A DNA stretch of 64,000 bases from Flectonema sp. DT1601 (taxonomy: Eukaryota): NCBI GenBank assembly GCA_964019425.1, contig OZ025785.1, positions 1,116,001 to 1,180,000 of the forward strand. The letters are read 5' to 3'. Each line of letters begins with the position of its first letter. Position 1 is the stretch's first letter. The notes beneath the pieces were generated by a model that was not told the origin of the DNA, did no database searches, and was given only the letters and a program-made list of their open reading frames with translations. Below are positions 10,329-49,956 of the stretch, piece after piece. The position numbers and the translations under genes are program-made.

Positions 10329-10532
10329 TGATGATGATATCTGTGATTGTCAATTATTTTTATTTTTGTTTTATTTTAATGAAAAGAAAACGAATAAACA
10401 AAAGAAATTCTGACGTTTGAAATTCACAATCATATTAATGTGACTCTTAGGTAGGATGAGGTTTTCTGTTTGAGATATTTCTCCAGTTCTCGTATCGCTT
10501 ATTTTTATTTTTATTTTTATTTTATTCTTTTG

Positions 10533-10957: not shown

Positions 10958-11993
10958 TTTTGTAATTTATGATACCACCTACTGGGCACATTCATTGCCT
11001 TGTGATTTATTTATCACCGTGAGTGTTGTTTTCATAATTGCCGTTCAAACTGTCTACGCGATTTGATTAGATGACAAAAATGATTTTATACCCAACTGAC
11101 TGACTCTTAACATCAAAGTACTTGTGTGCAGTCCCCACACACGTGTTCGGTTATCTGCAGTCACGTCATTGGGTATCAATCTGAATTGTGTCTGATGGAT
11201 TTCGTTGTAGTTTTCCTTCTCGTGGCCCATTTGAGAATTTTTTCGAACGGGCACGAAGTTCTCTCTTTTTTTGATTGTTCGTTTTCTCCCCCTTCCATCC
11301 CCTCGCTTTCCGAAATCGGAAGTGGTAATGCAGCTGGAGTACATCAGAGCGAGTCCTTTCCTTTTGTCTCTCTTCTCTCTCTCTCACTCTCGGGTGATGA
11401 TTCAACTTACAGCATGTATCCCAATTCCATTTTACTTTTTTTTATTATCATCTTTGATGTCAACTTCATCACTACGTCGCTGGCTGTACCTGCGACTTGT
11501 CGTTCACTTGACGGTGAGTGTGTGTTGCTCATTATTAGAGATACTTTTATCTTTTTATTCAATGCTGAAGGAATTCCTTTTATAATACTTTTGCTTGGCA
11601 AGCTATTCTTCCCCAAAAAAGTATTCCTTCAACAGAATTTATTTATCTCACAGAAATCAGTTTTCTTCTAGTCAACACCTGTGATCGAATCCCATGACCA
11701 ATCCCTTCCCCAACCCAATAGTAGGATCAACCTATTTGACTACGTGTTAACTAATGGTGGGTAGTAGACATTAGTGTTTGAATGCTTCTGATGATTGGAA
11801 CTCGTCAGTCTCAATTTTTTAAATAATAATTTCCCACCCTCAGCAAGAGTAGAAAGGAAAACAGAAAAAAGAAAAAGAAAAATACAGCCCGGTTAGTAGG
11901 TAGAGCCGTATCTACTATTATTTAGCGGGAACTGTGTAGAAGAAGGATCTCTGAAGGGGAAACAAGCAAACAAACAAACAAAAGAACAACAAA

Positions 11994-14900
11994 ATGTTTT
12001 GTTCGAGAGTGCTAAGCGTGATGGCGCTGTTGGCTGGAGCTCATGCTGCTGCTGCACCTACGACTTGCAACCCTGCGGGGTTGCGTGGAGAGGGACTGCT
12101 TCACCACGATGTGAAGCACCTAATGCCGGGGACATTTCAAAAGACTGCGGCGATGATCTCATCGAGACAGCAACATGTTGCTTGTGACGGGGACTGCGTC
12201 AGAAGCTTCAGGGACACCACCACTCACTCACCGCTCAAGTATGTATTTCACTTAGGTGGACTCTTTTTTTCTTTTATTTTTTTGTTCAACTTGTTGCAAA
12301 AAAGAAAAAAAGAAATGGGGAAGGGGAAGGGATTGATAATAACAATAATAACAATATTTAAAAAAACAGCATTCACGTTGACTTTTCACTTTTGGATGAT
12401 TCAAGATACGCTTGTCAAAATACTGGAGACATAATCCAGTTGGCGCACGACCCTTCTCCGGGAGCCGCAAATGCTTTTGGAGGGGGCGGGTACACGACGA
12501 GCAACAACATCGACTACGTGTGCCCGGATTCATGGGTGATGACGAGCAACAAGAAGCAAAGACTGAAGGACGCGGTGAACAGGGCAGTGACTCGAATCAA
12601 AACGGGTCTGATGGCCAAACACGTGGTCGAAAACGAAGGAATCATCAAGACGGTCGACGGGAGGGTGAACTGCAACGCTCGGGACGGTGATTCGAACGTT
12701 TTCAGCAACCTGTTGATCGCAGAGAACGGAGTAGCGGCGGACTTCGTGTTGTATGTGACGGCCAACCCGGTGATCGTCTTTGACGGGTCGGGTTCCAGGA
12801 TTCAAGCCAATGCTGCAGGTTGGCCGTGCCACTTTGCGAGGGAGAGTTCAAGACCGGTTATCGGTTTGATATCATTCCACCCGGATCAAGTGTCGGATAT
12901 TGACAGTGAGGTTCAGTACATGTCGAGCGTCGCGCTGCACGAGTTGGTTCAGGCGCTGGGATGGACTCCGGAGCTTGCGGTGAACGACAAGTACATCACC
13001 AACTGGAACGCTGAGGGAAGAACGTTTGACCAACTTCCTATTGACCTCATGGTGACGAAGAGTGATCGTCTTGGAAAGAGGGGTTACCTGAGATCTCGCG
13101 AAGTGACCTTTGCCGAATTCTTCGACGATCCGTCGTGGGTGCAGCCGGCGTTTTCTTCGTGGAGGGAGTCCTACCCGATTGGTACCCCAGCGCAAGTGAC
13201 GAAGCTGACGACTCCGACGGTGATCGAGCAGGCGAGGTTGCACTACGGGTGCAGCCCTACGGATGTCGATGGGCTGGAAGTCGAGGACTACACGTTTCGG
13301 GCGATGGGGTACGGCCGTGATTGGAACGACTTTCCGCAACACTTTTCAGTTCTTTGGGAGAAGCGTATCGCCAACGACGAGGTTATGAACCTTCAGGTGA
13401 CCTCGAAGGCGGTTCTGTCGAGGCTGACTCTCGCGATGCTTCAGGACACGGGGTACTACACGGCGGAGTTCTCTGCGGCGGAACCGTTGGCACACGGGAA
13501 CAACGAGTGCTTTGTGCTGACTTCGAACTGTTGGGCTTGGAGTGGTGATTACATTTGCCCGAGATCGGATGGATTGCCGGTGACGAGCCCCACGTTCTGC
13601 ACTGCCGACCGACGTGGACGTGGTACCTGCAATGCCGGCGAGTACGTGGTGTACAGCAGGTCTGTTGTGCCTCGGGTCCCTCGTGAGTACCTTGTGGTCA
13701 AGGATGCGGTGACTGGAACGAGATACTTGCCGTACTATGTCCCCAATCTCAGTTCTTATGCAGAGTTTAACGTGATGAGGGAACCGATCGTCAGACTGAA
13801 CGGAGGATGTGATGAAATCATGGACTTCTGTCCGGTGTGGGAACAGGTTTCGGTTGAAGACGACTGCAGCAACCCGACGGGGTGGGCCGGCACTCCCGCG
13901 CAGTACACGGCCCCGGGATCGACCTCTTCGTGCTTCGTTTCAAATCTTCGGACGTCTACCACGGGGACGCTTTCGGGAAGGTGTCTTCCTCACGTCTGCG
14001 AGGCTGCCGAGGCCGGGACGTTTGAGCTCACCCTGTTCGTGGGGAGGACTCAGGTAAAGTGCAGCACGAAAGGGAAAATACAAGCGGTCAGCTTGGCTGA
14101 TGGGATTGGTGGGGATATCTATTGTCCGGATCCCACTTTGTTCTGTGCAGGAAAGGCAGAGCTCCCTCCGGTGGCGTTGAGGTTAATCGAGGGTACGGGG
14201 GAAATAGTTGTCGGGGAGTCGACGGAGTTCGTCATCGAGGCAACCGCGATGGGATCCATTTCGGGAGTGAGGAACCAGATTGGAATGTGTGTGGTGTCCG
14301 GGGAGATCGACGAGATGTCCACGAGGGAAGCGAGCTACCACGGGAAGTGCGAGAGGGTTTCGACGAGTACTTTTACCCACATGGATTGCCCACTGTTGGA
14401 TGATCCGGTGAGGAGGAGCTCGGCGCAGCAGTGCCACGCTGCGTGTTGTGCGGATCCGGATTGTGTGATGTGGCAGTGGATCACGTCCAGCGGCGTGTGC
14501 AAGCGGGGATCGACTGGACCGGAGCTGTGCGAGGGTAAGCCGTGGGAAGTAGCTCAAGATGGAGCATACCTCAGGCGGATTACTCAGTTGCCTTCCTCGG
14601 GACTTCTCCCTGGGGAGACATGCAAGACGACATTCATGACGCGCCTCGGGTTCGAAGCGAAGGGACAGGCGAAGTTCAAGGTGTTTCTGAAGTCCGTGAG
14701 CAGCAAGATCGTGTTCTACGGGATCGGAGAAAACCTCCTCAATGACGTCATCGTGCGGACTGTGTCGGCGAAGGCCGGGCCTCCTTCGAACGTGAGGATC
14801 ACGTCGCCGCCTGAGGGAACCGAGATTCTGTCCGGAAGCGGGTTCGATGTCACCGCGATCCTGACGGATGCGTACGGAAACCCTTCGAGGGGCACTGCCG

Positions 14901-17900
14901 ATGGATCTGTTTGCCCGTGGGGGGTGAAGACTTCCGAGACGGATGTTGACTTCTTGGGTGACGACCGGGTGGTGATGGACGGGAAGTGCATTGAGCTGTA
15001 CAGGACGGCGATGACGAAGGCCGCTGCGAAGGAGAAATGCAGGACGGCTTGGGGAGAAGGGATGGGGACCCTCGCGACAATCACGAGCTTGGAGATGGAA
15101 CAGATGCTGGTTGGGGCCTCGGTGGGTTCTTTCTGGACGGGATTGGAGGTGACTGCCTTGACGATGCCGGCGACGACGACGTGGGATTCGGGGGCGGACT
15201 CGCAATGGTGGAGGGAGACTTACGGAAACCCGAATGGTCAGGATTACGGTGAATGGGGTTACAGGAAGGGTTGCTGCAGCGGAATCTGGGAAGCGGATGT
15301 CGACAGGTACGAAACCACCGCGGCGTTTGATGCGAATCCTCGGATCAAGAGCTGCATTCGATTCAACCCGAGCGTGTACGAGTACTACCCTTACGAAGCG
15401 GTTCTTTGCCGTGAGAGCTATCCGTTCTTCTGCGAGTTCAGGCCCCGATTGAAGTTGGTTGTGGACGCAGTGAGCGTGGATGCCGAGATAACTGCGCCTG
15501 TCGGAGTGTACGCGGGCAGCAATGTGAGGTTCAATGGAGTTGTCGCTTTGAGAGCGCCAGTCGGAGACACTGTTGATGACCACGATACCTTCATGATTCA
15601 GGTCACCAGCCCGGGAACGATCTTGTCGTCGACCGGAGGGCAGGTTATCTTGAAGTGGAAGGTGCCACCTCAGCCAACGCACATCCAGGCTCTGGGCTAC
15701 GATAGCGGGTCTGCTACGTGGTTGCCGTCGATCACGGTTCAGGCGGGCGGAACCATCACTGTGACGATCAACCCGACCGATGTCGGGGGGAAGTTCATTT
15801 CTTGGAGCAACATTATGTACTACGAGGTGAGGGACCTGTCTTCGGGGAACGCGTACGAATTCACAGGATCGTGTCCAAATGGGAGGGTGAAGGACGGATG
15901 CCGGGTTGTGATGACGCCGGAGAGCCATCCGTTCATTACTAAGGTGAAGACGATTGAGGTGGTCGCTTCGTCGGTGAAATTGACTGCCAACCCGGAATCG
16001 GTTCTGATCCACATTGTTCCGGGAACTCCGTGCGGGATCGACGTTGATTGCCCAGCGGCTGCCGAGTACGCATCGGTCATGGATCCAGTTGATTTTAAGA
16101 TTGTTGATTGCTACGGCAACCCTGTCTGCGACAGGAGGAGCAACGGGATGCCGATCACCGTTTCAGGTGACGGGCAGCGGGCCCTCGCTTCGGGCTTCGG
16201 ATCTTCTCCGACGTCTGTTTGCGGGGCGTTCAGCTCGGAAGGCGACTGCAGAGAGGGAGGATGCCTCTGGGGAACTGCACAGATGGATCCGTTGATCTGC
16301 GAGCCGGGAACCTGTTGCTACTCTGTCAACGGTCCACGGTTGGTTCCACACCGCGGATCGAGCGATTTCTTGGGAGCGCAGAGGCTGTGTTTCCCCAATG
16401 ATCGTGCCATCCTGTTCTCTGGTAGCGAGGCTCCGTACATCAGAACTGCGAGTTGCGCGTACGACCTTGCGGAATTGTCTGACTTCGAAGACATCTTTTA
16501 CATCAGACCGTCGACTTCGGGGAAGCTGCACCTCGAGGTCGCTTCGAGTGGTTCAGAAATTGTGAAGCCCAACGAGTACGAAGAGATCGGGGACAAGTGT
16601 ACCCCTGATTCCAACGGTGTGACCGGACTACACGACACCTACACCTGGGACACAGCCGATTTCTGTGACCCAACGGAGTCGTCGTTCGATGCCGCAAGGT
16701 GTTTGAAGCCGATGAACGCGGATGTTTGCAAAGAGCTTTGCAACCTGTACCCGAGTGCGGGCTGCATTGGAGTGGAGTACTCCGAGGCAGCTGTCGTCGC
16801 TGATTCAACAGCAGCATCGTGTCCCGCGGAGTACCCGATTGCATCTGACGGAAACACCTGTTGCAAGGCTGGTGATTCCTCGGACTGCACGGGATGCCCG
16901 GCGGTCGCCGACCAAAATCAGGAACAGAATTTTCTGTGCACCGTAGGTGGAAACAGCTTCGTTTTCCCCGGCAAACTCACGGATCTGGGACTCGTGTCAT
17001 ACCAGACAGTTGATGATGAAAGTTGTGCTGATGGTAGGAGAACGGTGCTGAAGTTCACTGATACGGCAGCCCACCACGACAGAATATTAGGTCGGCTTAG
17101 TTGTGGGACCTTGGGTGCGAGTAGTGTCACCCCTGCTAACACGTGTGTTGCACACGCTCGTGTAGAAAGCTTTGGCGAGTATGCTGGATGTCGCATTCAG
17201 CAAGCTTCCGTTTCCGAATTTCGAGTAGTAAATGCTGTTGAAGGATGCCCTGTGTTCTGTGATGCAAGGGGGTACCAATACTGGGGTTTGGTCTGTCCGT
17301 TCGTTGATGGGACAGTAGGGTGCATATGTTCTACACCTGCTGAATTTGATGGATCAGCTGTGACGGATGATGCCGATTGCTGGTCAGCCAGTGGGAACGA
17401 GCCTCAGTGCAACGGTGCGAGCTTGAAAATTGGAACAACAATTTATGGCTCGGGTCGCAGTGAGAGGGCGGCAGCTTTCTACAGGGTAACGCGGTCTGTT
17501 GCTGTGTCTACTTCGAGGACTTGCGCAGACTGGAAATCTGATGCGAAAAGCTGCTCATTGATGTTGAAGGGACCGAGGCCAGCGTCCACCACGACCATTA
17601 CCAACGGGCCTGTGGTCTACGGACTAAAAGACGGACACACCGGAAACCTTAACAACTACGAGAACACTTTGACGAAGGCGAGCGCGCCGTCGGAATCGAC
17701 AGCGGGCGACATGTGCTTCCGCAGAGGGGTGACGATCAAGGGAACCAAGCCAAGCCTCAGCGTTCAGATATTCGGACCGAAGGATTCGCTCGAGGCAGTT
17801 GATGGGGAAAGAGGCAGAGAAGAACTCTGGACGTGCGAACCCTCCCCGTCGTCGAGTGTGTCGTTGAAGCAGGCAAACGTGGAGGCGAACCGAATCTACG

Positions 17901-20900
17901 CGATCAAAATCAATGTTCTCGAGGAGGTTGATGCGGTTGAGTCAAAGCCTCTGTACACGGTGAGGCTCGGCGAGGAGAACGAAGCCGGACTGTCTTGCGG
18001 AGAGGACATGGAGTGCACGGCGGGACATCCGTGCCCAGCAACATGCAGTGAGTCGATGTTCTCGGGATTGATTGTCCCTGCTGAGAGCGGGAGCTGTGCC
18101 GAGTCGACGTTGACGGTGTCGCTTCGCGCCGACAAGGAATGGACTGATGAGTTTGGCCTGACGATCACGGAGGGGACTTGCGAGGTTGCGATGGGTTGCT
18201 CAAAGTTCTCGCTTCAGGCACCCGATGAGATTACTTCGGGAAGGACGCTCTGGAACTTCGTGGCGTTCTCGGTGTCGGCTTCGGCGGGACAAAATCTCGG
18301 CGACAGGCAAATTGCATGGAGGCTGGTGGCGATTGACTGCGAAAACAATGTGGTGGAGTCGTGGAGCAGCGTGACCGACACGGAACTGGATGCGGCGAAC
18401 GGCTACTCGAGTTCGGCAAGCAGAGACTTCGAGGGTCCTGCGTGGGGATCGGGATACCGTGGAACGTGCTCGTACATCACTTTGAGGATCATTTCAACCA
18501 GCCACCCGATCAAGGCTGCGGAGAAGAGGGTTGTCGTGCTGCCGGGTAATCCGTATGCGGTGGAAATCCTGAAGGATGTCCCGAGCTGCTACGAGGCGTG
18601 TGACGGAGATGCGGGTTGCGACAACCTCCGATTCTCTGTTGTCCTGAGGACCGAAATCGGTACCAGGTCGCTCACGGATGGGATTGAGTGTACGGCGTCG
18701 GCTGAACACCTCGATGAAGGGAATAACCGTTACGTGTCGTCCGCGTTCTCGCCGTTTCCGAAAATCGTGAAGCAGACTGCTCAGGGAGTGGCGACGTTCT
18801 CGACCGGGTACAAGCGGGCGGGAGATCTAAAGATCGTCGTGAGCTGCGTGTGTGCGACGTGTGCGGGTGACAGGAGGGCTGTTGTGATGCAGAGCATGCA
18901 AAGGTTCGTGGAGGTATTCCCGGCTGCGCCGTCGTCGATCACCTGCAGCGCGCCGACCCGTGTGTTGGCGGTTGACGACATCGATGTATCGGCGTTTCTT
19001 TCGGACGAGTACGGAAATGAGGTTTCCGAGAGGGTGTCTGGAATGGAGCTGTCCCTGAGGAAAACGTCTCCTGGAGAGGGGACTGGGGCCCTGGCTGGGG
19101 CGAGGTCGGTGGCCCTGTCGCCGAACGGTGATGCCGAGTGGATCGTGCAGCACGATAAGACTGTCAACGCGTTGGCGATCGAGATCTCGGTCGCGGCACC
19201 GACGCTGAGCTCCCCGTCGGAACCGTATTCGTACACCGGGTGCTTCACGACTTCGAACGTGGGGTCTTTGCTCGGAAGCGGTTGCACGAAGAAGAGGGAG
19301 TCGGAGAACATGACCCCGGCGATGTGCGCAAAGGTGTGCGCAATCTTCCCGACGTTCGTGCTCACCGGGAACGATGTTGGTTCGAGGGCGACGGTCTGCA
19401 TGTGCTCGATGCAGGAGGCGATCACGGGAACGCCGACGGCGGGAGCGAATTGCCAGAGGCACGGATGTCAGGGAGACGTGCTCGGAACGAACAGCAGATG
19501 CGGATGCGCTGTGGGAACGGATGCGAGGATCGTGGCAGCTTACAGGAGGAACACGAACTACCAGCAGACCGGGATCGCGGCGACGACGTGCGGTTTGATC
19601 AGGGTGTACCCGAACAGGCCTCGGGCGTTGAAGATCACCAAGCAGCCGTGCGAGTGGGTTGGAAACACGCTGGTGGGGAACTACGAAAGGAGGTGCCAGC
19701 AGGCGCTGAGCAGCGCGAGGTGCCCGGATGCGGCTGTGAACCAGCAGATGAGCTACACGGTGGGGGTTTACGATGCCGGTGGGAACTTGGCGGACACGGC
19801 TGGCGACTACAGGACGTTCGCGAATGCGAGATCGGTGAGGGAGTGTTACAAGAGGTTGGTGACGACGACGACGGTCGGGGGCGAGGAAATCGAAACAGAC
19901 GAGGTTTGCTTCGACGGGTACCCGGACGTGGAGGTGTCGCTGGAGCGGATCTCGTACGCGGGAGGACTGTCGATTCAGCCTGAGAAGCACAACCTTCGAA
20001 GCGGAAACGTGTTTACATTTACCACGACGCAGGTGGACGTGGGATGTGTTGTTTTGTGGGCGACTGCCGACGGGGCGTTGGATAGTTCGGCGGCGACGAA
20101 CAAGATTTGCTTCCACGCGGGGCCGATTGCCCGGATCGTAATCGTCGAGTCGCCGGAACAGGTGTTCGCTTTGAGCAAGTTCCCGTTGTCGAAGGCAGTT
20201 GTCTACGACAGGAACGACAATAAGGTCACCTGGGCGACTTCGTCACTCGGAATCTACCCGTGGGACGACGGTGCGCAGCCGAACGCGGAGGAGTTTTGTC
20301 TGGGGAGGGTGACGACGGGGGAGGGGGAGGTGAGAACCGTTCCCCGCGTGGTGAACGCGCTCATCAATTTGGGGGCGAACCACCCCGGTGCGACTTCGGA
20401 AAGCAGGAGGCCGTACAATCCGAGCACGAAGCTGAGCGGCGGTGAGACGACGTTCGGAGGGTTCGCGTACCAGTCTCTGGAAGACGGTCTGGACACCCCG
20501 TGCTTCAGGTTGAGGTTGTCGTTGGAGAGGGATGGCGGGAATCCGTCGGTGTTGGGATGCCCTGCCGGAACGTCGGGTCGGTTGATCGAAGCGCTCCAGC
20601 TGAAGGAAGATGAGTATTCAACTGTTGTCGGTCTCTCTGATCGCATTGAAATATTGCCGGCGTCGCTTGCGTTGGTTTCCCCGTCGAGCGACACGGTGAC
20701 CGTCAAGGCCGGTACTCCGGTTACTGCGATCATCTTCTGGACTGCTGACACCCAGTGCTTTGCGGATCCGACGTGCCAAACCGACGCGTTCAAGGTTCGG
20801 ATGGAGTACGTGTCGGGGCCAACGAGTTTATCTGACTGCGCGATGTGTGGTTACGAGGTTTCGTCGCCTGATGGCAGGCAGGTTCGGTTCTCGAACATCA

Positions 20901-23900
20901 TTCGCAGGGTCGCGGGTACCTACAAGTTCCGTTTCTGGGGGACGTCGCAGGACGTTCCTTTCGCGGCACCTGTTGACCTGACGATCATAATCCTCGCTGC
21001 TGATGCCGATAGCTTGAACATCGTGTGCCCTGAGGAAGTGGTTTTCGGGTCCGGGTTGGTTGTCGACGCGGGGACGATGTTCGCGTACCAAGTGGATGTT
21101 CGGGATGGGTACGGCAACCCGGTGAAGACGTGGAGCGAGGACATCTCGTTGCACGCGAGGGTCGCTGGCGGATTTAGGACGTACGCTCCGTGGTACGACT
21201 TTGGGCAGCCGATCCACGTGTCCCAAACGCAGGGGAACACGTACGCCGTTTTCAACGGGCTCTCGATTGAGAAGACCGGAAGGTACGAAATCTACGCGAA
21301 GTCGGGGAGGTTGTTTAACGACTTGTGCACGGTGACGATTACCGCTGCGGAACCGGAAAACTGTGCCGCGTATTTGACGGACAGCCCGGTAGAAGCGCAG
21401 CCGGAGTACGTGAAGGCGGGAGTGAACATGAGGATCCGGGTTACGTTCCACGATGCGTACGGGAATCTGATTGCGGCGAAGATGAACGGGGAGACGGTGA
21501 CCGTGGACCTCGCGCAGGGAGTTACTGGAATGCTCCACGGGACGACGGAGAAAGTGGTGAGCTCTGCGCTGACGTTCTTCGACGTGAACTACCAGGTGGC
21601 ACCGAAGGAGATCGGGTTCATCGCTTCCGCGAGGGAAGGGTCGTTGTCGTGCAGCACCGACGGTTTGCTGATCGTCGCCAACGACCCGGCGACGATTAAG
21701 ATTATTGAGGTTCGCGAGAGGGAACCGAGTGCGGAGACTCCACCGAAGGAGCCGTTGCAGCCTATCGAGGGACCGAACAACGATGAGTACCTGTCTCCGT
21801 TGACTGCTGGAGAAGACTTCTGCGTGAAGGTCCACATTGTCGACGAGTTTGGAAACATCGTGGACGAAAGCAATGAGGAGATCAGGAAGTTGTACACGTC
21901 GAACGCGGGTACAGGAAACAACGGCTCGCCGCCAATCTTCAGTTTCGATCAGGCGAACACGCAACCCTTGTTCACGTTTGGAGGTGATTCTAATTCTGAC
22001 GGAGGTTTGTTGTCTTTCTTGGATGACGAGCAGGGGTCCGATGAATGTAACGACAACTTCATCCTCCTTCCGTTCTTTGGCTTCGAACCGCCCCAGGAAT
22101 GCGGTTCGGGGGTTCCTGTGTTGGATACCGATGACTTGCCGCTTGATAACAACCCGACTCTCGATGATGGAAACGCTGAAGCGATCGGGGGGGAAACGTC
22201 TCCCCAGGAGAGCAACCCCGAGTACCCGATGAGGCGGGTGACGCTTGCCAGGTCCGGATGTGCGAGGGTTGACGGATGCAAGAGCACCACCGATGAACTT
22301 GACGGGACGACGCAGCTGGACTCTGTGAACGGAGTGTTCGATATTTGTGGAGTGCAGTACGTCCGGTCCGAGTGCATTTACATCATGGCGTCGTCGGCGG
22401 ACCTCGGAACCGACGAGTCTCCAAAGGTTTGCGTGTCGCACGCGGTGTGGGACAACATGCAATGCGTGACGACTACTACGAGAACCGCGCAGGGGAGGGA
22501 ATTCGGAGGATTCAAGGTGTCGATGTTCGACGTGCACGGGAACCCTGCGAGGAGCTGTTCGAGGGATTCGGATGACAGGTCATGTGAGGTGACGATCCAG
22601 GAAATGGAGGAGAGAACAACAAACGGGTACACGTGCTGCGGGAAGAAGACGGACCCGAACCTGGCACCGGGAGTTTTGACGGGAGAGGAGCTGACGATCG
22701 ACGCAGCTGGCGGAAAGGCGGACTTCGATGAGTTGGTTTACAGCAGAGGAAGGCCGGCGAGCGATGCCCTCGAGATTGAGGTGGTTGGGGCTGACGGAAT
22801 CCGTGCGTACTGCGGTCAGGTTGTAGTCGTGGGAGTCCGTTTGGTGTGTACGGAGTCCCCTCCGGAGGTGGTTGCCGGAGAGGCGTTCGCGGTTGAGGCG
22901 AAGATGATGACCTGGAGCGCGGCTGACGGGGAGTACGTGGACATCAACTGCGTTGGGGAGAACAGGAACACCCTGTGTCCTACAATGGGGAGGCTCAGAG
23001 TTGCCCAGAGCACGGGAACGTTATCCGGAAACTACTTCTTCGTGAGACAGGCTGGGGCGTCCGGGTACTCGAATGCGCACTGCGGTGCGGCGGCAACAAG
23101 GGGAGCGTGCGGCGGAATTGCGGACCCGGCATGTTCGTACGGCGTTCACGTGACGGAGCCGTTCCCTGCGATGAAGAGCGCGCTGAGCTGCTACAACCCG
23201 ACGCCGGACTTCAGCGGGTTCCAGGTGTCTCCAAACACGTTGGGGCAGCTGACGTTCTCGTCGCTGAGGTACTACACGGCGACGACGTTCAGGCCGGAGG
23301 CAACCCCGAAGCACGCGAGCGTTTCGACGAGGCAGTGGGCTGCGGCAGTGGCGGCTGACAGCGAGGCCCCGGGGGTGTGCGATCCGGTGAAGGTGGTGGC
23401 GAACAAGCCTTACGAGCTGTGCATGGGTGGGACCACGAGTTCGTTTCAGGCAATCCTGCACAAGGGGTACTCGGAGACCCCGAGCTCGGTCAGGTACGGA
23501 GCGAAGTTTGAGAGGTGCAAGTTGCTTTGCGACGCGAGCAACACCTGCAAGAAATGGGCGTTCGTGCCGGATGAGAAGGTGTGCAAGCTGTACACTGCAG
23601 GGGACATCGTGCCGACCGCCGACGAAGAGGGAACGGTGTCGGGATGCAAGGAATCGGACGACCCGGCGTGCAAGTGCACGTGTGCTGGGGCGGAGGGTGG
23701 TTGCCCGGCATGCTTCACGGTGAAGCCTGGAAGCTGCTCCAAGTGCGCGGGTCCGAACTGCGGTAGTTGCCCGGCGAAGACTGTCGTTGCGGGAAGACCT
23801 TTGACGATGGGGATGAGGATTCACGATGAGTGGGGCAATGAGATCTCTGAGACGATTACGAAGGAAGTGGTTGTGTCGTGCAAGGTGACGCGGGGACCGC

Positions 23901-35900: not shown

Positions 35901-38900
35901 ACGTTCCGTTGCCTGAGGACCTTTGGGTCACTCTTACTGTGTCGGTTGGCACTTCGGAGGTGGCCTTGACTGTGGTGAGCCTCGATGGCAGCAAGACAGC
36001 GACTGCTACTGCGGCGTTCGAGTCCAGAATCCCGACGGATGGCATCCAGACGTTGAGACTTTATGAAATGGGTTTCTCGTCGCTTCGCGTGACTTCCGGA
36101 AGCACAGCTTACCTGGGAGTCACCGTTCTGAGCGATGGCGACATTGAATCGAGCGGTGGGTATTACAACGTCGTTGGACCTGTGAACAGGGATCTCCTGG
36201 TGATCGAAGGTTCAGTGGCTGCGGTGACGCAGTCGGTTGGGTTGCCGGGGGACTGCTTCCCGGATTCGGCGGTGACCGGAAGCGACATCCTGACGTACAC
36301 GACACCTGATTCTTGCATCAAGAGCCGAAAGGATTACAAGGTAACATGGATGAACAACTGGTACACGAAGACCGGAAAGGTGACTGTGAAGTTCTCGCTG
36401 AGGGACGTGACGTGTCAGACGTCGTTCGACGTGAGGGCCGGTCCGGCGCACCGCCTTCGATGCAAGGACGTGCAGGAGGAGGTCTTCACAAGAGAGCCTT
36501 GGCATTCGAGCATCGATGTTGTCGATGAACACGATAACCTGGTTGAGTGCATCGCTGACTTCCCGGCAACCAACACCGAGGAGGGCGTGTTCGGGGCGAG
36601 GTCTTACGACTGCACAGCGTACACGGCAACGGTTGCCGTGCACGACGACGTGAGCGGGGATTCCCTGTACCAGGCATCGCAGACGGAGTCGCCGTTCACG
36701 AGCATTCCGCAATCGGAGGCCGCGTTCAGCCCGAGGTACGCCCAGCAGCCGAAGTCTGCGCTCCCGACGGGAGGGGTGAACGGCGTGGCGGACGGGTCGA
36801 CTTTGGCCGAGTTCGGGGTTGACTTCACGCAGGCTACTCCGGTGTCGACTGAGGGATGGGACGCGCGCTCTCCGACGGGAAGCTGGGCGGTGGGTTCGGA
36901 GTCATCGGCGGAGGGAGGGAGGTACTTCTTCGCATCCTCGGAAACCGAGAGGGCGCTGAACATGAGGTACCTCACGGACGGGAGGTTCGAAAACTTCGAC
37001 AACCACGGAAACAGGTGTGCCCGGTCGAGGGATCCACGGGCGGTGTGCAGGTACGGTTCGGACCCGAGTGTGGACGGTTGCTGCAGGCTGCACACGCCTG
37101 GGAGAATAGTTCCTGGACGGACGTACTCTCTGCAGTTCAGGTACCGAATTGGCGAGGCGGAGAACGTGGACACGGCGCGGGTGACTGTCAGCTTCTGGAT
37201 GCCGAACAGGCCTCCGGCGGGGCATCGTCGCATTTCAGAGGGAGTCGTCGAGATCGACGCGGACCAGACCGAGGGATGGGTTCAGGTTGCCAAGCCGTTC
37301 TCGTCGCCAAGGCAGGGGTCGTACGCGGAGATCACCGTCTGGTGTTTCAGAAACGGGGAGGCGGCCCGCTGCGGGGTGAACTTCGACGAGGTAAACCTGG
37401 TGTTGTTGGAGGAGGAGGAGTTGGTGTCGCTGACCTACAATTCGGAGCTGCCGAGGCAGACGGGGGGAACTGTGTCGGGGATCACCTGTGGACCGACGAA
37501 GGTGAAGACCCGGTTCGTGAGACCGGTACCGAGGGAAACCCCGTGCACGGATGCGCTGTCTTGCAACGGCAACGGTTACTGCAACAGGGAGGAGGGATCG
37601 ACTTGGTCTTGTCCGAGCGAGTTGGAGGGCCTGTTCGCTCCGTACTGCTGCAGGCGTGCGCTGCAGTACTGCTGTGGGGATCTGATGCGCGACACGGCGG
37701 ATGCTGAGTTCCGCGCGAGCTGTGGAAACCGGTTCTGCTCTGGGAATGGGGGACAGTATCCTCTGTCGAGCCCTTGCAGGGAATGCCACGCGGACCCTTT
37801 CTTGGGATACTGGGGAGGGACGAACTGCGAGAAGTGTGCGGAGGGATACTACGGGGAGAGGTGTCAATACAGGATTTGCAAGATCAACGAGAAGAACGGA
37901 AGGGAGTGCTCCGGGCACGGTCTCTGCCAGACGGACGGGGAGTGCACGTGCTTCGGAGGGATCCAGGGGGACGGATCGTCGGTGGCGCCGGCGCTGCACA
38001 TCGCGCACGGGATGATCAGCTTGCCGAAGCCGAGTCCGTCGAGCCAGGGATCGGCGGCTTCGTACGCCTCGTGCAACGACGTCCTGAGCCAGTACAGCAG
38101 CCGTGGGTTCGGAGTGCCTGACGAGGGGATCTATTCGATCTCCGAGGGAGAGGGGACGACGGCGAAGTACTTCTGCCGGTTCGTGAAGTCGAGGAGCGGG
38201 AAGTGGTTGGGAGGAGCGATGGTTGGAGGGGCGTGGGTGTCGTCGAGCACGGGCACGATGGCCGGAAACGTCGCTGGGGCGAGGTTCTCGAGCGAGGGAC
38301 AGTTTGCGCCGCTGGCCGAGTACGGGACGCCGGCGTCGGTGATGTTCGCGACGGGATCGGCGTCGTCGGAAGACGTTGGGAGGAGGTGGCTCCAGTCGAC
38401 CCTGCAGGACGGAGGGGCGGGCGGGGCTTTCGCTCGCAACCCGCCGAGGACGTGGGACTCGGTGATCTTCGCGACCAACCCAAGCAACCCGAGGGAGCGT
38501 CCTTCGTGGATCATGGTCGGGGCTGCCGAACTCCAGGCGAAGCTCGCGTCGGTGAAGGCGTCTCGGGATCCGATCGCGACTGAGCTGAAGGTGCTGGCGC
38601 AGGGGAACTCCAGGACTTCGAGGAAGAGTGTGTGCGTTTACTCCGAGGGGAGGAGGACGTCGTGCACGAGGGAGGAGGGTGCTCCTGAGAGGTGCATCGA
38701 GGGTCCGCCGGTTTTGATCGGGATCTTCGACAAGTGCGGTGCGGGAAGAGTCGAAGGGTTCCCGATGTGGTTTGGAGAGGGATCGACTGGGAGGACGCAG
38801 CAAACGGTGGCTCCTTCGGTGCGAGTTTTGGTGGTCGCGGGAGCAGGAGGAGTTGACTTCGCTCCTGGGTCCGAGAGATGGGAGCAGGCGAGCGGGGAGC

Positions 38901-41900
38901 TCCCTCTGCAGACGACTGCTCGCGCGCCGGCGAGCTTCCGGACCAACGTGGCCGGGGTTGCTGCTCCGGCGAAGCAGTACGTGTGGTCGAAGTGGGACAA
39001 CGCTCCTGTTCCGTTGGCACTGACGTTCGGCGCTGCGAGGGTGGAGAGCACGTTCCCTCGCGGTGCGATGTTCAGGGGGCTTCCGTCGACGTTGGCGGAG
39101 CTGCGGTCGATCAGCGTGAACTTGTTCGCGACGAGCGAGGATTCGGTGAACGTGAAGGTTTGGCTGAAGACTGCCGAAGGGCGGAGGTCGCCGGTCTCGG
39201 AGGGGACGTTGGTGAACGGGCAGATGCAGGTTTCGATCGGGATGGCGCGGTGGTCGAGCGAGAACCACGTGGCGACGGTTCGTGACCTGCCGGGGATCAA
39301 GATCTTGGTCGAGTTCAGCGGAGGAGTCGCGTCGACTGTGTCGTTCAGGGGAGCGATGCTGGAGTTGGGATACACGAGGGTGCCTCCGATTGAGGAGTTC
39401 GAGTTCACGGCGATGCTGAAGCTGGGACACCAGGACCGGATGCTGCCGATGACCATCCTCGATTCGAGCGATGCGGGGGGAGATCGCATCCGGATCGACC
39501 TGAACGTCGACCGGGACGGGAAGCCGCTCGCCGCGGCGGTGCGGGTGCGGGTGACGGATTCGAACCAGGCGACTCTCGAAACGATCACGACGGGGATGCA
39601 CGTGTTGTTCGCGAACAGGTGGGTGAGGGTTCGCGTGAACGTGAACATCGGAAGCGGAGAGGTGAGCCTGTCGATTGGGAAGTCGAAGGCGTCGGTGGGC
39701 GAAGGCGGGAGCGTGGTGCGGCTGTGGAAGCAGATCACGTCGACGCAGCTGGTGGCGAACGGGTACCCGGTGATCCGATCGTTCTCGGCGATGAGCAACG
39801 GAGTGACCTTCGGAACGACGGCGTCGCCGTTCATCGGGTTCATCAGAGACCTTGCCCTGACCAAGGGTGGGGCGACCGTGGTGGCTTCGCTCAAGCTGCG
39901 GACCGAGGGCGGGGACGAGGGGGACGCTCCGGCGGGGTGGACGACCACCGAGGGGTCGGCGACTTGGAAGAGCGTTTCGATTCCGAGGGAGGGGACGAGC
40001 TACGACGGGGTGATCGCGCGGGCGGTTCCGGTCGGGTTTGGGTTCTGGGCAGACGGAGTGAGCGGAGAGGAGTGCGACGTGTGCTTGGATGGATTCCATG
40101 GACCTGGATGCGACCTTCCGAACTGCGTGAGGAACAGCGACTGCAACGGACGCGGTGTCTGTCTTGCGGGAGGACAGTGCGACTGCGTGGACAACTACAC
40201 GGGAGACCGCTGCACTCGCTGCGAAGGTCCGCCAGTGAGGGCGGAGCGTGGTGCCGACGGGGTACTGGTTTGCACGACGGGTTGCCCGACGACCTGCGCA
40301 GCTGGTGGACGGCTCGTGGCCGGAGAGTACTTCAACCCGAACCTCATCCTGCCGCCTGTTTCGTGCGTCGGGGAAGGCGGAAGGCCGCTTTGCAAGTCGA
40401 AGAACGTGGTGAAGGTCGACGATTGCGGATGCCCGATGTCGCCGGAGCGCGAGTGCGTGGGATCGGACGGAAGCGGATGCTGCAACCCGGGGATTGTTCC
40501 GGTGTTCAATGCGGCGGTGATGTACAACTGCCAGGGATACCCGTCGCAGTACATCACTTGCAAGGATCCGGACACGTGTGGGAAGCTCGGGGCTCCGGCG
40601 CCTGTGTGCCTGCCGGGAACGTCGGGGTCGAGACAATACTCGTCGTGGTGCCACTCGAAGAGGGCCAGCGGTGGTTGCGACGGGCAGCGGCAGCGGTCGA
40701 GGGCGGAGGCTGCGACGGCTGCCGGATGGACGGGAGCGAGGTGGGAGCGATTCGTTTCGAACTGCGCCGGGATCTGCGGAACGGCAACCAACCAGGAAGT
40801 CGGAGGCGGATGCTCGTCTTGTCCGAACGTCGAACCGGACAGGGAGATCGATTGCTCTGGGCAGAACGTGCTTCGCGTGCACGCGCCGGTTCAGAAGATC
40901 AAGGAAGACTTCTGCGGGTGCACGTCGCCGGAGATTGCGGTGTGCCGTACCTCGGACACGGTCGAGTGGAACACGGCTACCCAGGGACACGTGCGGTGCG
41001 GGGCGTGCCCGAACTGGCAGGCGATCTACGAGGCGAACGCCGGGGAGGCGGAGAGGGCTACGCCGGAAATCGAGATCGACTGCAGGGGATGGCCGGCACC
41101 GGAGCTCGTGCAGCTGCCGTGCTCGGAACCCGGTTACGATCCGTGCGAGTGCCCGCTTCCGAGGTTCGTTTGCAGGGAAGGGACGGAGGGGAAGTGCGGG
41201 GGAGAGTCTGCGGCGTGTCCGACGTGGGGTCCTGCTCCGGAGCTGGACTGCAAGGGAGCGTACCCACCGGTTGTGAACCAGGCGGCGGAGCACGTGTGCG
41301 GATGCGACTTCCCGAGACCGGCGGTGTGCAAGGCGGGTAGCGAAGCGCAGGTGCGGTGCCCTGAATCGGGAGACGTTGTCGTGAGTGGCCAAATCACGTT
41401 GATCGGGTGTCAGGGTAAGCCTGTCGCCGGACCTGCGGTGTGGAGACCTGGAAGCTCGAGGTGGCCGTTCACCGGGGCATGCTCTGGCTGCAACACGAAG
41501 CTGCCGATCATCAACCAGTGCAAGCCTGGGAGCCAATGTCCGATTGTGAACGAGTGTCCTGCTGGATCGGATAAGGCGCCGGGGGGAATTGCGTTCGGAC
41601 AGGCGTGCCCGGAAACCGTGTACGAAGACGTCGAGTGCGGGGGAGTGGTGCTGCCGCCGATCGAGTACGGGCAGGATTCGGACTGTTGGTGTGCGCCGAC
41701 GGTGGTTCAAAGATGCGTGAACGACGGTTGCGTCGGAAGCGAGAACGCATGTGCGCCGTACGTGTGCGGGTTGACGAGGTACGCGGAGGCGGTCCCGGGA
41801 GACCAGTGCCGCGAGAGTTGCACGCAGGATTCGCATTGCATTGAGGGGCATATTTGCGTGGGAAGCGAGTGCGTTGAGGAGGACGCCCCGACTCCGCCGT

Positions 41901-44900
41901 TGGGAGACTGTCGGGTGGACGCTTCGATCTGCGAGCCGTACACTTGTGATTTGGTAACCGGCGGGTGCTACCAGGAGTGTTGGTCGGACAAGCACTGTTT
42001 GGAGGGAAGCAGCCGCCTTCGCAACGAGAGCGGATACCGATGCACGTTCCCGACGTTCACGTCGCTGACGCAGGTTCCGAGCTTCTTGGTTCTCGGGGGA
42101 AGCGAAGAGGACGGGACCTCCGGAAGGGCGCAGCCACCTAACCTGTGTGGGTCGTCGGAAGGAGAGGGGGCTCAGACGGTGCCTGGGAGGTGCGTGTGGA
42201 CGACGATTGATCCGGAGGCTTGTACCAGCCAGAGCGATCCGCTTTGCGGATTGTACGCGTGCGGGAAGAACAACACGCAGATCTACTTTTCGAATGCGGC
42301 GTGCAAGGTGTCGTGCAGCAACGATGCGCACTGCAGCAGCGACGCGCACTGCGAGAGGACGACCGGGAAGTGCGTGGCCGGGGCACCGCAGTCTCCGCAG
42401 AGCTGCAGCACGAAGGACTACGACTACTGCTCGCCGTACGCTTGCGGGAAGCACATTGCGTTGGCTCCGCTGCCGACGGCGACCTGCAAGACCAGCTGCA
42501 CGCTCAGCGGGCACTGTTTGCACTTTTACAAGTGCGTTGGGGGAGAGTGTGTTGCTGGAGACGTGATCAAGGAAAGCTACCAGTCGCCGGACTTGATTCC
42601 GGAGGAATGCTACAGCTCGGAGACGGACATCGTGCGCAGGCCGTACAAGTGTTTGAGGGTTCCGATTCCGCTTGACGGGAACCCGATGGGGAGGGTTGGA
42701 TACGCGGTTGCACCGTCGGCGCCGGCACCGGCGGAGAAGACGGCGATCACCTGCGGGAAGCACAGGGACTGCCACCCGTACAGGTGTGGGTCGGGACGCG
42801 GGGCGGTTGTGGGAGGACCGTACACTTGCAACACCCAATGTGTGGTTTACGACGACTGCGCTGAGGGTTACTCGTGCGAGGCGCAGAGGTGCGTGCAGCT
42901 GAGGGCCCCTGCGGCGCAGTGCGCGCTGGACAGGGATTGCGCATCGGGTCACTGTGTCGATGGAATCTGTTGCAACACGGCGTGCAACTTGCCGTGTCAG
43001 AGATGCACGAACATGGGTGTGTGCGGATGGGTTGACGTGGGTACCGATGACCGCAACGACTGCGGAAGCTGCCGCACCTGCGTCGCGTTCTCCGAGTCCG
43101 GTTCGGATGTGAAGAGGGAGTGTGCCGCTGTCGTCGAGGGTCTCAGTCCGAAGAGTGAGTGCGGTGCGATGGGCACCTGCGATGGAAATGAAGGGTGCAG
43201 GTGCTTCAGGAGCTCGGAGACTGGGTTCTGGTCGGGAGACAAGTGCCAGTACTGCGCCAAGGGCTACCGTGGAAGGTCGTGTACGAAATCGGATGCTCCG
43301 CTGAGGCCACCGACGCCGGTTGCGGACGGAACGCCAACGCAATCGCCTGCCATGCAACTGGAGCTTCGTTCTGTTCAATATCCAATTAGGGTGTTGGACT
43401 ACTCCACACAGGTATCTTCGGGTAATGTTAACAACTTGATTGGTGAACCGGACGCTGTGGAGTCTGCTTATTTCCAGAAAGAAGAGTTAAACAGAAACAG
43501 TGCTTGGGAACCGTTTCAGGTATGTATTTTTATTTTTATTTTTATTATGTTTTTATTGTTGTTTTATTGTTGTTTTATTTTTTAATTTTTTTGTTGTTTG
43601 TTGTACCGACGATGAAGTTAGAAACGAAACCAAGGGTTTCTTGTTCCTGTTCTTGTTTTTTTGCCCTTTTGTTGGCGTCCCTGTTCTCTTTTGTTCTTGG
43701 TATTCTTCGATGACGAAAATAAAATAAAATGAAATAAAAAAACAGTACCACTGTGACAGACCTGACAACTTCAAGAGAGCTCAATGTCTGCCAACTGAAG
43801 AGAGGGAGCTCGGCTGGCGCAATGAATTGCAGTACGTGGTGTTGGAGTACGAGAAGGCAATCTACTTGGACCAGGTATGTCTTAATTATTGTATTTTACG
43901 ATTCTCGTTGTGGACTTGGGAATTTTACACGAATTACTTTTTTCCCCCCTCTCCCCTTTTTGCCAGTTTCAAGTTGCTTTCCATTTAATATTAGTATCAA
44001 GTTATCCCCCCGTACTCGTTGTGTGGACAGAATCCAGTTATAATGATTCATGTCTAACTTGTTGCGTGTTAACCCTTGATTTATTTATCCAAGTCCCACC
44101 CCCTTTTTTTTTTTTGTTGTTGTTGTTGAGTTAACGAAATGAAAACAACACAAAAAATACAGATTTTCGTGTACGAGAATGCAGAACCAGGACAGGTTGT
44201 TCAGGTGTTCGCCCAACCAGTGCAGAAGGGAGCGGATGCCATTGCCGGAGGAGGAGCACCGGGAAGTACGCAGCAGATCAATGGAGTGGTGACGTCGGCG
44301 GTGAGGGGGTCGACATTGACAAACACCGGCAACAAGTTGAGGAACGTGGATGCTGCGGCCAGCACTGCGGCGGCAACTTCGGTAACCAACGGCGCGACGT
44401 CAATCAATTCAAACACCAACGAGTTCGTCGAGATTTGGAGCAGAACCGACCCTCTCTTCTTCGGAGAGCCACGGGCGAGAATCTACGCGCCGTCGACGGA
44501 CGCAAACCCATTTGCGCGCCCGACGACTGCGGTGCAAACGGTTTCAGGAAACCAGCAGAGCTCAGTCAATGTGCAGTGGAAGACCAAGGTGGTGAAGTTG
44601 GTCATCCAGCCTAGCAGCAACAGGAAGTCTCAAATCGACACGGTGGGGATTGTTGGTTTCGCGGTGGCCGGGTTGAGGACCACCGGAGAGTGTCCGGGAG
44701 TGGTGACCCTGCAGGAAGACGGATCGACGAGGCAGGCGGTTTGCAGCGGAAACGGAAGGTGTCGTCCACACGGATGCGAGTGCAACGGAAACTGGGACGG
44801 TGCGGATTGCGGTGTGTGCAGGTTTGGATACATCGGAGAGAATTGCCAGGAGCTTGCACTCCAACCAGTGGATACGGTGAACCTCTGTGCGGTATCGATG

Positions 44901-45449
44901 TTCGAAGACATCCTCGATTTCGAGGGCGATGTTCTCGAGCTCCGCTGGTCTATCCAGGACTACGTCTACAGAACAACTCGCGTGATGAGACCTCGTCACT
45001 ACGGTACGAAGTTCGTGTCGCCGTTGATCAGTCTTGGACAACACACCCACGTTAGAATTCAGACCGGGTTCTTTGTGATGGACATGCCTAACCACGACGA
45101 CAGCGGTTTGATGGCGAGGGTTGCGAGGGTCCGTAGCAGCAACCCAGCGAGGGACCGTACCGAAGCGGAGCGCCAGAGCGAGGGGGAGAGAATCGTTTTC
45201 ATGAAGAGAGTTCCGTACGCGACGGGTATCAACGTTGTTGGTACCGGTAAGGGTGACACTTCTGACCAGATGGATGTCACGACGTCGTGGGAGTCTCCGC
45301 AGATTAGTGTCGAGTTTGAGATCTGGTCTCCTGACATCGATGCTGCTGATGGTGGCGATCACCGAATGACCATCACCTACTTTGTTGTTCACTCTTGTAA
45401 TTATCCATCACAGTCTGGTACTGAGAGTCCTGATACTGACTTGAACTAG
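11994..45449 (+). CDS. Giant (~10,936 aa) secreted mosaic protein with an N-terminal leishmanolysin/GP63 (M8)-like pseudo-peptidase domain, ~25 Ig-like repeats and lectin, WSC, PAN, Kelch, EGF and Cys-rich modules; exons 11994..12238, 12370..43519, 43746..43874, 44163..45449
   Basis: Exon 1 gives a signal peptide (MFCSRVLSVMALLAGAHA). The phase-2 intron 12239..12369 joins AA|C to give SPLNIHVDFSLLDDSRYAC, in frame with the 10,397-aa ORF. Exon lengths 245+31150+129+1287 = 32,811 nt = 10,937 codons including the stop. Confidence 0.9.
12239..12369 (+). other. Spliceosomal GT-AG intron (131 nt)
   Basis: GTATGT...TTTAAAAAAACAG; links the signal-peptide exon to the long ORF in frame. Confidence 0.9.
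12370..14146 (+). other. Peptidase M8 (leishmanolysin/GP63)-like domain, active site degenerate
   Basis: Motifs ADFVLYVTA, RPVIGLISF, VALHELVQALG, LTTPTVIEQARLHYGC, GLEVED, WEKRIANDEVM, SRLTLAMLQDTGYY, DEIMDFCP and IYCPDPTLFC occur in the order of the M8 family. Confidence 0.88.
14912..15445 (+). other. C-type lectin-like domain 1
   Basis: CP..GKCIEL, AKEKC, LATITS.E, FWTGL, C..., FFCEF. Confidence 0.8.
19226..19548 (+). other. WSC carbohydrate-binding domain
   Basis: YTGCF...MTPAMCAKVC...CMCS...C...C.G...CG...AYR matches the WSC cysteine pattern. Further WSC-like units at ~17170-17485, ~28950-29170 and ~31280-31565. Confidence 0.8.
23450..23650 (+). other. PAN/Apple domain
   Basis: CKLLCDASNTCKKWAF...CKLY...VSG. 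Similar units at ~14380-14510, ~16720 (split) and ~28560-28840. Confidence 0.75.
25952..27538 (+). other. Kelch-type beta-propeller
   Basis: Repeats RLGHT...MYGG...WRFD...W, KAGHA...VFGG...WMYD...W, YVVGG, YVTTG, IIYGG and YMFGG...DMWYL. Confidence 0.85.
30350..30898 (+). other. C-type lectin domain 2 with intact EPN and WND sugar/Ca2+ motifs
   Basis: HFYHYY, WRDAQTAC, GYLMT, WMGASD.AEEG.W.W, EPND (30782), WND (30839), FICEW. Confidence 0.88.
36960..37410 (+). other. Galactose-binding/CBM4-9-like jelly-roll domain
   Basis: LTDGRFE...VPGRTYSLQFRYR...GWVQV..PF...VNFDEVNL resembles the NGGFE...PG.TY...W...F...DDV.L consensus. Confidence 0.6.
43520..43745 (+). other. Spliceosomal GT-AG intron, copy 2
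   Basis: Same as 8399..8624. Confidence 0.9.
43875..44162 (+). other. Spliceosomal GT-AG intron, copy 2
   Basis: Same as 8754..9041. Confidence 0.9.
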
Positions 45450-49932: not shown

Positions 49933-49956
49933 ATCCATTTTATTTATAAACGACAA

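Follow-up and report, generated by a model that had tools for sequence, protein, structure and literature searches.

The 64,000-nucleotide stretch of Flectonema sp. DT1601 analyzed here (contig OZ025785.1, positions 1,116,001 to 1,180,000 of the forward strand; hereafter the window) contains a gene predicted to encode a secreted protein of 10,936 residues, which begins with a head of the leishmanolysin type (GP63, peptidase family M8), continues as a long stalk of immunoglobulin (Ig)-like repeats interrupted by lectin-type modules, and ends in a cysteine-rich tail (Table 1). The mosaic layout was first described in an original prediction made from the sequence letters. To that description we add the loss of two zinc ligands from the head, an upstream tandem copy of the gene, and a severe depletion of N-glycosylation sequons along the chain.

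The re-derived coding sequence comprises 32,811 nt over four plus-strand exons, the number originally predicted, and has a single terminal stop, and 95% of it lies in one exon of 31,150 bp, again as claimed. The product has a predicted mass of 1.178 MDa, an isoelectric point of 5.0, a Cys content of 4.3%, and the C-terminus SGTESPDTDLN. The uninterrupted plus-strand frame around exon 2 runs from 12362 to 43582; by base composition, an open frame of 10,383 codons would arise by chance with a probability of ~1e-171. All three introns (131, 226, and 288 bp) read GTATG...CAG with an A-rich 3′ tract. Comparable A-rich acceptors are found in neighboring genes (at 50084, 51024, and 53418), and a published account gives GTATG donors and A-rich acceptors for Diplonemidae, with A the most frequent tract base in Diplonema japonicum (PMC12621601). 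The candidate spliced-leader acceptor upstream of exon 1 shares its motif with the intron-3 acceptor and would act in trans-splicing. Relatives support each intron: alignments of P0018 and P0001 cross intron 1, and the LxHH propeptide motif of exon 1 aligns in six relatives; DIPPA_12236 of Diplonema papillatum crosses introns 2 and 3 in a one-piece alignment over residues 8163-10936; and P0007 and P0009 end exactly at the intron-2 position. Rfam returned no matches.

DIPPA_12236 (KAJ9443611.1), annotated as a 2,820-aa gene, is 43% identical to the C-terminal quarter of the giant protein and ends in CTYPSQAGRDSPDTNLN, which is likewise hydrophilic and without an anchor. Together with P0001, P0018, P0007, P0009, and P0010, it forms a set of orthologue pieces that are 33-49% identical to and collinear with the giant protein. 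P0001 and P0007 cover 86% of its length, and P0018, P0010, and P0009 cover 76% (putative pairings from two further genomes); with DIPPA_12236, the combined coverage reaches 96%, leaving residues 1-61 and 5991-6281 uncovered. By this comparison, the predicted gene is real and conserved among diplonemids. The translations of all five pieces other than DIPPA_12236 end in V-C, G-M-C, or R-Y-V, the peptides that a GTATG donor gives in its three frames, and we infer extra introns in those genomes. The 31-kb exon is thus probably incidental and not a conserved trait. The frame of a neighboring kinesin gene is also long (at least 9.8 kb).

An artefact of assembly or annotation, in which several shorter mRNAs are made in place of one giant protein, seems to us scarcely credible. 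The region is marked as hard to assemble by a 100%-identical 10.4-kb duplicate, and the orthologues are recorded only in pieces, DIPPA_12236 among them as a separate gene. Against this, the frame is unbroken, GC content at third codon positions (GC3) stays at 0.58-0.82 in all 22 blocks of the gene with no AT-rich gap, and the lowest-GC 40-nt stretch of exon 2 still has at least 32% GC. Exon 2 holds a single A-rich acceptor-like site, which is coding sequence and lies 19 nt short of the exon end. Individual relatives are collinear with the giant protein over 6,864-7,962 aa, and the ends of all five pieces could come from translation running on through a GTATG donor.

The duplicate itself matches the gene without a mismatch in 10,420 bp. 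Within the window it runs from approximately residue 7667 through introns 2 and 3 to the stop; because the window edge cuts it off on the 5′ side, its extent is 10.4 kb of the 3′ part of the gene or more. Approximately 1 kb of flank is missing between the copy and a diverged 63-bp remnant of the downstream flank. GC3 in the giant gene stands well above that in three neighbors (0.26-0.34; 47687-63998), a contrast that may stem from gene conversion, from expression bias, or from a foreign origin of the gene. Given the diverged remnant and this GC3 contrast, an older duplication held identical by gene conversion fits better than an assembly slip.

A GP63-type head that has lost two zinc histidines

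The head matches the Pfam M8 profile at 106.5 bits against a cut-off of 21 (E 1.9e-30), and leishmanolysin (1LML) matches it at E 8e-7. The protein is thus GP63-headed in domain, as originally described; the protease activity that this name implied is most likely absent. HExxH is replaced by HELVQ at residues 272-276 (12938-12952), so that the second zinc His becomes Gln, and the third zinc His is replaced by Leu410 (13352-13354) within VLWEKR, at a position occupied by His in 145 of 152 M8 rows. The Met-turn is kept (DEVMN, Met421). These 152 rows, our M8 census, consist of the giant protein, P0001, and the best 150 of 696 matches. All three His and the Glu are present in 136 of them, part of the region is missing from eight, and five have other changes. 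The H-E-Q-L pattern is confined to the remaining three (the giant protein, P0001, and P0018), for which HELVQ with VLWE(K/R)R is a signature.

In a quick tree of 33 M8 rows (11 family members and 22 of 118 longer others, with Shimodaira-Hasegawa-like approximate likelihood ratio test [SH-aLRT] support only), the same three proteins form one clade (SH-aLRT 99). P0002, P0019, and P0020, giants of 7,231-7,962 aa with intact sites (HELxH and HWEKR), form their own clade (SH-aLRT 95), and five relatives form a third (SH-aLRT 99), four of which are proteins of 2,400-3,200 aa with multiple transmembrane (TM) segments. By tree and census, the loss of the zinc ligands is old and clade-wide, and the sister clade of giants retains the site. 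In GP63, mutation of H264, E265, or H268 destroys activity, and in Trypanosoma cruzi the GP63 groups G9 and G10 are inactive (PMC11957388). Because two zinc His are lost, and in light of these mutants and inactive groups, the head is likely a catalytically dead pseudo-peptidase. His406 was considered as a replacement ligand and ruled out, as it is Pro in P0001 and Tyr in P0018.

A further reading is an extracellular digestion platform, in which the head retains residual activity or the protein recruits glycosidases and proteases to algal walls in the manner of a cellulosome. All three dead-head proteins have kept His272, Glu273, and the Met-turn, which speaks for it, as do the carbohydrate-binding-module (CBM)-type domains described below and the many secreted carbohydrate-active enzymes that PMC10161547 attributes to D. 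papillatum. With two of the three zinc ligands gone, no conserved substitute at residue 406, and no catalytic glycosidase domain found in our Pfam scans, we regard it as quite improbable.

The four multi-TM members of the third clade (P0021, P0023, P0024, and P0025) have seven to ten hydrophobic segments and, in some cases, degenerate zinc sites, and P0023 has a C2 domain. They are possibly receptor-like, and we found no description of this M8 family in the literature searched.

The stalk, its inserted modules, and the tail

The stalk was recognized by a D-x-x-[GD]-N strand motif that occurs 23 times in the giant protein, against 3.5 ± 2.0 in 200 shuffles, with approximately four of the 23 matches outside an Ig context. 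An iterated profile of our own, seeded with the motif and not independent of it, found 23 repeats between residues 877 and 8141 and none in a reversed control. The predicted Ig stalk is partly supported at a slightly lower count (~23 as opposed to ~25 repeats), with weak outside recognition: Pfam gave sub-threshold matches only, to Invasin_D3 (23.6 bits against 33) and GEX2; in the Atlas, Ig clusters of invasin, Big_1, filamin, and SMCHD1 scored 0.87-0.91, and the recognition value did not reach the threshold set there; and a single-sequence fold of residues 882-1282 had low confidence (a predicted local distance difference test [pLDDT] score of 29.9). According to the alignments, lectin module 1 is inserted after the D-x-x-G-N strand of its repeat, a WSC unit sits before the last strand of another, and a CBM lies within the final repeat.

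The Kelch propeller was predicted correctly and additionally scores E 1.5e-15 against an attractin/LZTR1 model; NCBIfam models run on exons 2 and 4 gave weak Kelch-type matches only. Of the two C-type lectins originally called clear, the second exceeds its Pfam cut-off (Lectin_C, 28 bits against 22.6) and matches DC-SIGN and mannose-binding protein, and its EPN and WND motifs align with those of DC-SIGNR. The first has no match in Pfam or the PDB, and its Cys/Trp pattern is kept in five relatives. P0001, P0010, and all three of the live-head giants lack the ~290-residue block that carries lectin 2, and this block appears to be a recent plug-in. A bacterial source for it was not established, the sole prokaryotic match being 25 residues long and not confirmed in that genome; a comparison with plasmids gave six weak matches at 24-43% identity. 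Of approximately four predicted WSC-like units, one lies above the Pfam cut-off and three more are weak or found by our own profiles; three of approximately four predicted PAN units were recovered, all below the cut-off. A fourth own-profile WSC match, at residues 6704-6774, was dropped for overlapping an Ig repeat. Residues 3985-4170 (24077-24634, +) form a module with no convincing Pfam match, which resembles a Cys/Trp domain of diatom proteins, and residues 6780-6880 (32282-32794, +) may be a degenerate third C-type-lectin-like unit, kept in three relatives and without a Pfam match.

The placement of these modules bears on whether the protein is a polyprotein precursor, a single chain that is cut, perhaps by the paralogues with live heads, into separate lectin and Ig pieces. 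Its large size would suit such a role, the sister clade has intact HELxH and HWEKR motifs, and propeptides are known in the GP63 family (PMC11957388). We nonetheless consider a precursor unlikely: the modules are nested in Ig repeats and not set on linkers, so that cut modules would stay tethered, and the site R-x-[KR]-R occurs just once in 10,936 aa.

The tail was modeled with AlphaFold2 over residues 8095-9290 from an eight-sequence alignment (mean pLDDT 51; predicted template modeling score 0.38), and the model contains confident islands. In these predicted folds, residues 8210-8428 resemble CBM4-2 (Z 13.2, root mean square deviation [rmsd] 2.9, 151 aligned residues), with which Foldseek concurs; residues 8640-8904 resemble human intelectin-1 (Z 10.3, rmsd 4.7, 206 aligned; one row only); and residues 8928-9084 resemble the CBM BT0996-C (Z 9.2, rmsd 2.8, 112 aligned). 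The CBM-like and fibrinogen-like domains of the original prediction are thus upheld, and both of its Cys-rich repeat families were found. The EGF-like unit has a Pfam match below the cut-off, and neither the LamG-like call (pLDDT below 50, no Pfam match) nor the discoidin-like call (no Pfam match) was confirmed. Residues 10240-10310 resemble Cys repeats of four bacterial-type proteins, one of them named Deltaproteobacteria. A profile built from the C-terminal alignment found nothing meaningful among PDB sequences (best E 0.69), and a pappalysin-type beta domain, considered as a likeness for residues 10420-10680, was set aside for lack of Pfam support.

Table 1. Features of the giant gene and its tandem copy, in window coordinates
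Feature	Position	Strand	Basis or remark
Tandem copy, covering the 3′ 10.4 kb of the giant gene or more	1..10420	+	100% identical to 35122-45541
Downstream-flank remnant, 63 bp	10422..10484	+	95% identical to 46546-46607
Candidate spliced-leader (trans-splice) acceptor	11865..11887	+	A-rich tract ending AAAAATACAG, 106 nt 5′ of ATG
Exon 1: signal peptide (predicted) and propeptide of the M8 type (C...LLHH)	11994..12238	+	Gene model, alignment
Exon 2	12370..43519	+	31,150 bp, 10,383 codons
Peptidase M8 (GP63) domain, residues ~83-676, predicted inactive	12371..14152	+	Pfam, 1LML match, census
PAN-like unit 1, residues 758-802	14396..14530	+	PAN_4 E 7.5e-5, below cut-off
Stalk of Ig-like repeats (~23) of invasin/filamin type, D-x-x-G-N strand, with inserts	14753..37504	+	Motif and own profile
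C-type-lectin-like module 1, residues 946-1105, inside Ig repeat	14960..15439	+	5 of 5 aligned relatives
WSC-like unit, residues 1685-1790	17177..17494	+	Pfam WSC E 0.084, own profile
WSC-like unit, residues 2369-2477, before last Ig strand	19229..19555	+	Alignment, own profiles
PAN-like unit 2, residues 3784-3829	23474..23611	+	PAN_4 E 2e-4
Kelch beta-propeller, mid-stalk, residues ~4625-5135, ends approximate	25997..27529	+	Pfam PF24681 E 2e-20, above cut-off
PAN-like unit 3 (residues 5498-5569) and WSC-like unit (5605-5673), inside Ig repeat	28616..29143	+	PAN_4 E 7e-6; weak cross-species profile match for WSC
Lineage-specific insert, residues 5991-6281, C-type lectin 2 with EPN...E...WND	30095..30967	+	
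WSC domain, residues 6391-6480	31295..31564	+	Pfam 28 bits, cut-off 27.8
CBM4/16-type beta-sandwich, residues 8210-8428, in last Ig repeat	36752..37408	+	Predicted fold, Foldseek, alignment
Fibrinogen/intelectin-like domain, residues 8640-8904	38042..38836	+	Predicted fold
Second galactose-binding-like beta-sandwich, residues 8928-9084	38906..39376	+	Predicted fold
Beta-rich domain, originally LamG-like, unconfirmed	39377..39994	+	pLDDT below 50, no Pfam match
Two Cys-rich repeat families	40265..43063	+	
Exon 3, 43 codons	43746..43874	+	Aligned through by DIPPA_12236
Exon 4: remainder of an unassigned beta domain, EGF-like unit, hydrophilic and conserved C-terminal domain, stop	44163..45449	+	

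All of the large genes identified in the window are on the plus strand. Taken with the match to DIPPA_12236 and the GTATG donors with A-rich acceptors, this arrangement marks the host as a marine diplonemid, probably a Diplonema-like one. Directly 3′ of the giant gene lies an intronless gene for a family 61 glycosyltransferase (47687-49600, +; Pfam E 1.8e-8). It is followed by a gene with a weak PDZ match that is apparently spliced to an exon with EF-hand-like motifs from 51025 (50037-51310, +), by a small two-exon gene of ~73 aa with a GTTTG donor and an A-rich acceptor at 53418 (53297-53590, +), and by a very long kinesin gene (54174-64000, +) that has more than 3,270 aa in one frame and a motor domain at E 7e-62 and extends past the window.

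Predicted secretion, sequon depletion, and a proposed scaffold

An N-terminal signal peptide is predicted by eye and from hydropathy alone. No TM segment was found in the giant protein, whose highest 19-residue hydropathy is 1.59, and no C-terminal glycosylphosphatidylinositol (GPI) signal, the last 25 residues averaging -0.55; the hydrophilic, anchorless end of the original prediction therefore stands. N-x-S/T sequons occur six times against 60.4 ± 6.7 expected (200 block shuffles, minimum 41), and the shortage is present in each of six blocks of the protein. Observed and expected counts in the orthologue pieces are 5/47 in P0001, 3/25 in P0018, 1/23 in P0010, and 4/18 in P0007, and two of the live-head giants have 17 against 62 and 16 against 27. 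The controls lie at expectation: 67 against 60 for the reversed motif, 141 against 141 for D/Q-x-S/T, and 28 against 25 for sequons in the neighboring kinesin. In the four multi-TM M8 relatives, sequons are enriched. Secretory proteins are reported to lose sequons from buried and interface sites (PMC5562741). The depletion suggests that the whole chain meets the glycosylation machinery of the endoplasmic reticulum (ER) and, more tentatively, that the surfaces of the protein are packed.

We lean toward reading the giant protein as a secreted, non-catalytic, multivalent glycan-binding scaffold, with glycans as its putative ligands and a coat, mucilage, or hairs as its putative location. Support for a >1-MDa anchorless extracellular scaffold that binds glycans, as in the original prediction, comes from the orthologue in D. 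papillatum, from the EPN-type lectin, intelectin-like, and CBM modules, and from the depletion of sequons; the head, however, is most likely not a working protease. The WSC domain and the second CBM-type sandwich are further sugar-binding folds, and the Cys content of 4.3% speaks for secretion. The protein would enter the ER and be made as a single chain. At ~4 nm per Ig repeat, the repeats would form a rod of ~100 nm, from which a dozen or more sugar-binding modules would project as side branches. N-glycans may have been selected against because they would be bound by the protein's own lectins or because its surfaces pack against partners or further copies, and the Cys-rich and beta domains of the tail and the dead head might act as assembly or binding surfaces. 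Once released, the protein could cross-link glycans in mucilage, glycocalyx, or hair coat and stick the cell to surfaces, neighbors, or algal prey. A mucilaginous attachment coat, a glycocalyx, and a coat of hairs are described for Diplonema species (PMC5845003), and prey with polysaccharide walls is the proposed target of attack by D. papillatum (PMC10161547).

A number of observations pull the other way. The hydrophobicity of the predicted signal peptide is no more than moderate, and His272 and Glu273 are kept in a head that we take to be dead. Sequons are not depleted in DIPPA_12236 (16 against 9.9) and are only slightly low in P0009 (3 against 6.5) and in the live-head P0020 (28 against 36), and the control motif N[ST] is also somewhat low in the giant protein (41 against 63). 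Lectin module 1 lacks the EPN/WND motif for Ca2+ and sugar, the majority of the PAN and WSC units fall under their Pfam cut-offs, and the CBM and intelectin-like calls are likenesses of fold, which by themselves demonstrate no function. The Ig portion of the AlphaFold2 model (model residues 1-121) has low confidence, and so the claim of nesting rests on the alignments.

The main rival is that the protein is a structural or payload component of tubular extrusomes, densely packed in a secretory organelle and fired at prey or host, with the lectin modules as anchors. Such packing would explain the sequon depletion, and D. japonicum and Diplonema aggregatum have tubular extrusomes both when sessile and when swimming (PMC5845003). 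In a review, three other Diplonema species have extrusomes tied to their swimming stages, and for D. papillatum, the only orthologue source without sequon depletion, none are listed (PMC8061765). That correlation, however, turns on a single species, an orthologue 43% identical to the C-terminal quarter is retained in D. papillatum, and an irregular architecture of swapped modules would be unlike a crystalline shaft protein. We hold an extrusome role to be possible and give it clearly less credence than the coat, mucilage, or hair scaffold.

A broader and speculative proposal is that diplonemids possess an undescribed pair of megadalton "bottle-brush" proteins, represented by the live-head and dead-head clades, in which plug-in lectins are borne on stalks purged of N-glycans and which self-assemble as the main block of mucilage, hair coat, or extrusome.

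Known systems and significance of the family

With leishmanolysin/GP63 (MEROPS M8, PF01457, 1LML), the giant protein shares the Cys pattern, Met-turn, signal peptide, and propeptide; it differs in lacking two zinc His and a GPI end and in its ~10,250 extra residues after the M8 domain. Like the T. cruzi groups G9 and G10, it would be an M8 pseudo-peptidase within Euglenozoa, but those groups lack the catalytic Glu (PMC11957388), whereas the giant's clade keeps the Glu, has lost two His, and bears a giant stalk. Diplonemid "leishmanolysin-like peptidases" (for example, D. papillatum KAJ9460312.1 and a Lacrimia lanifica transcript) have M8 heads that group with the giants (SH-aLRT 100), and several have degenerate sites too. 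Unlike the giant protein, they are 2,400-3,200 aa long, sequon rich, and predicted to have several TM segments, and none is among the seven proteins matched by our Ig profile. The supplement of the D. papillatum genome paper (PMC10161547) counts leishmanolysin-like orthogroups among the gains of diplonemids, and DIPPA_12236 appears in none of the seven supplement files of that paper. The intelectin-1 (4WMQ) and CBM4/16/22 comparisons concern predicted folds that are alike at only 9-20% identity, and sugar binding is predicted from the fold.

Giant bacterial Ig-extender adhesins (LapA, SiiE, and MpIBP) present ligand-binding domains on a long Ig-like stalk, and the giant protein appears to share this principle, with weak similarity to Invasin_D3, Big_1, filamin, and GEX2. 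In contrast to these adhesins and the invasin-type Big_1 proteins, it is eukaryotic, predicted to be ER routed, disulfide rich, and without an anchor that we could find; its repeats are highly diverged and its modules nested along the stalk, and no Pfam or NCBIfam model of RTX repeats or adhesins matched exons 2 and 4. Attractin/MEGF8-type proteins combine Kelch, C-type lectin, and EGF domains. The giant protein has lectin and EGF modules and a Kelch propeller that scores with the attractin/LZTR1 model; it differs in being far larger, in having no TM segment, and in its M8 head and Ig stalk, and no sign of orthology was seen. By domain content, then, the predicted protein is an M8 member without the motif of an active M8 enzyme; it would work like a bacterial adhesin and is not one.

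The literature that we searched, which excluded subscription journals and bioRxiv supplements, yielded no description of this protein family or of DIPPA_12236 and no named proteins of diplonemid mucilage coat, hair coat, or extrusomes. The family is apparently undescribed, whereas its kinds of components (M8 domains, M8 pseudo-peptidases, and Ig-extender adhesins) are already known.

A conserved secreted lectin scaffold of more than 1 MDa would be a direct candidate component of the coat, hairs, or extrusomes of diplonemids, and D. papillatum, which carries an orthologue, is said to be genetically tractable (PMC8611851). For the GP63 family, best known for a virulence protease of Leishmania, the old and clade-wide loss of zinc ligands would represent a new fate. 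For the evolution of very large secreted proteins in general, two features are of interest: a tenfold depletion of sequons along 10,000 residues and the nesting of inserted modules. If the bottle-brush proposal were true, the two clades would offer the first molecular handle on attachment and prey attack by these abundant marine protists.

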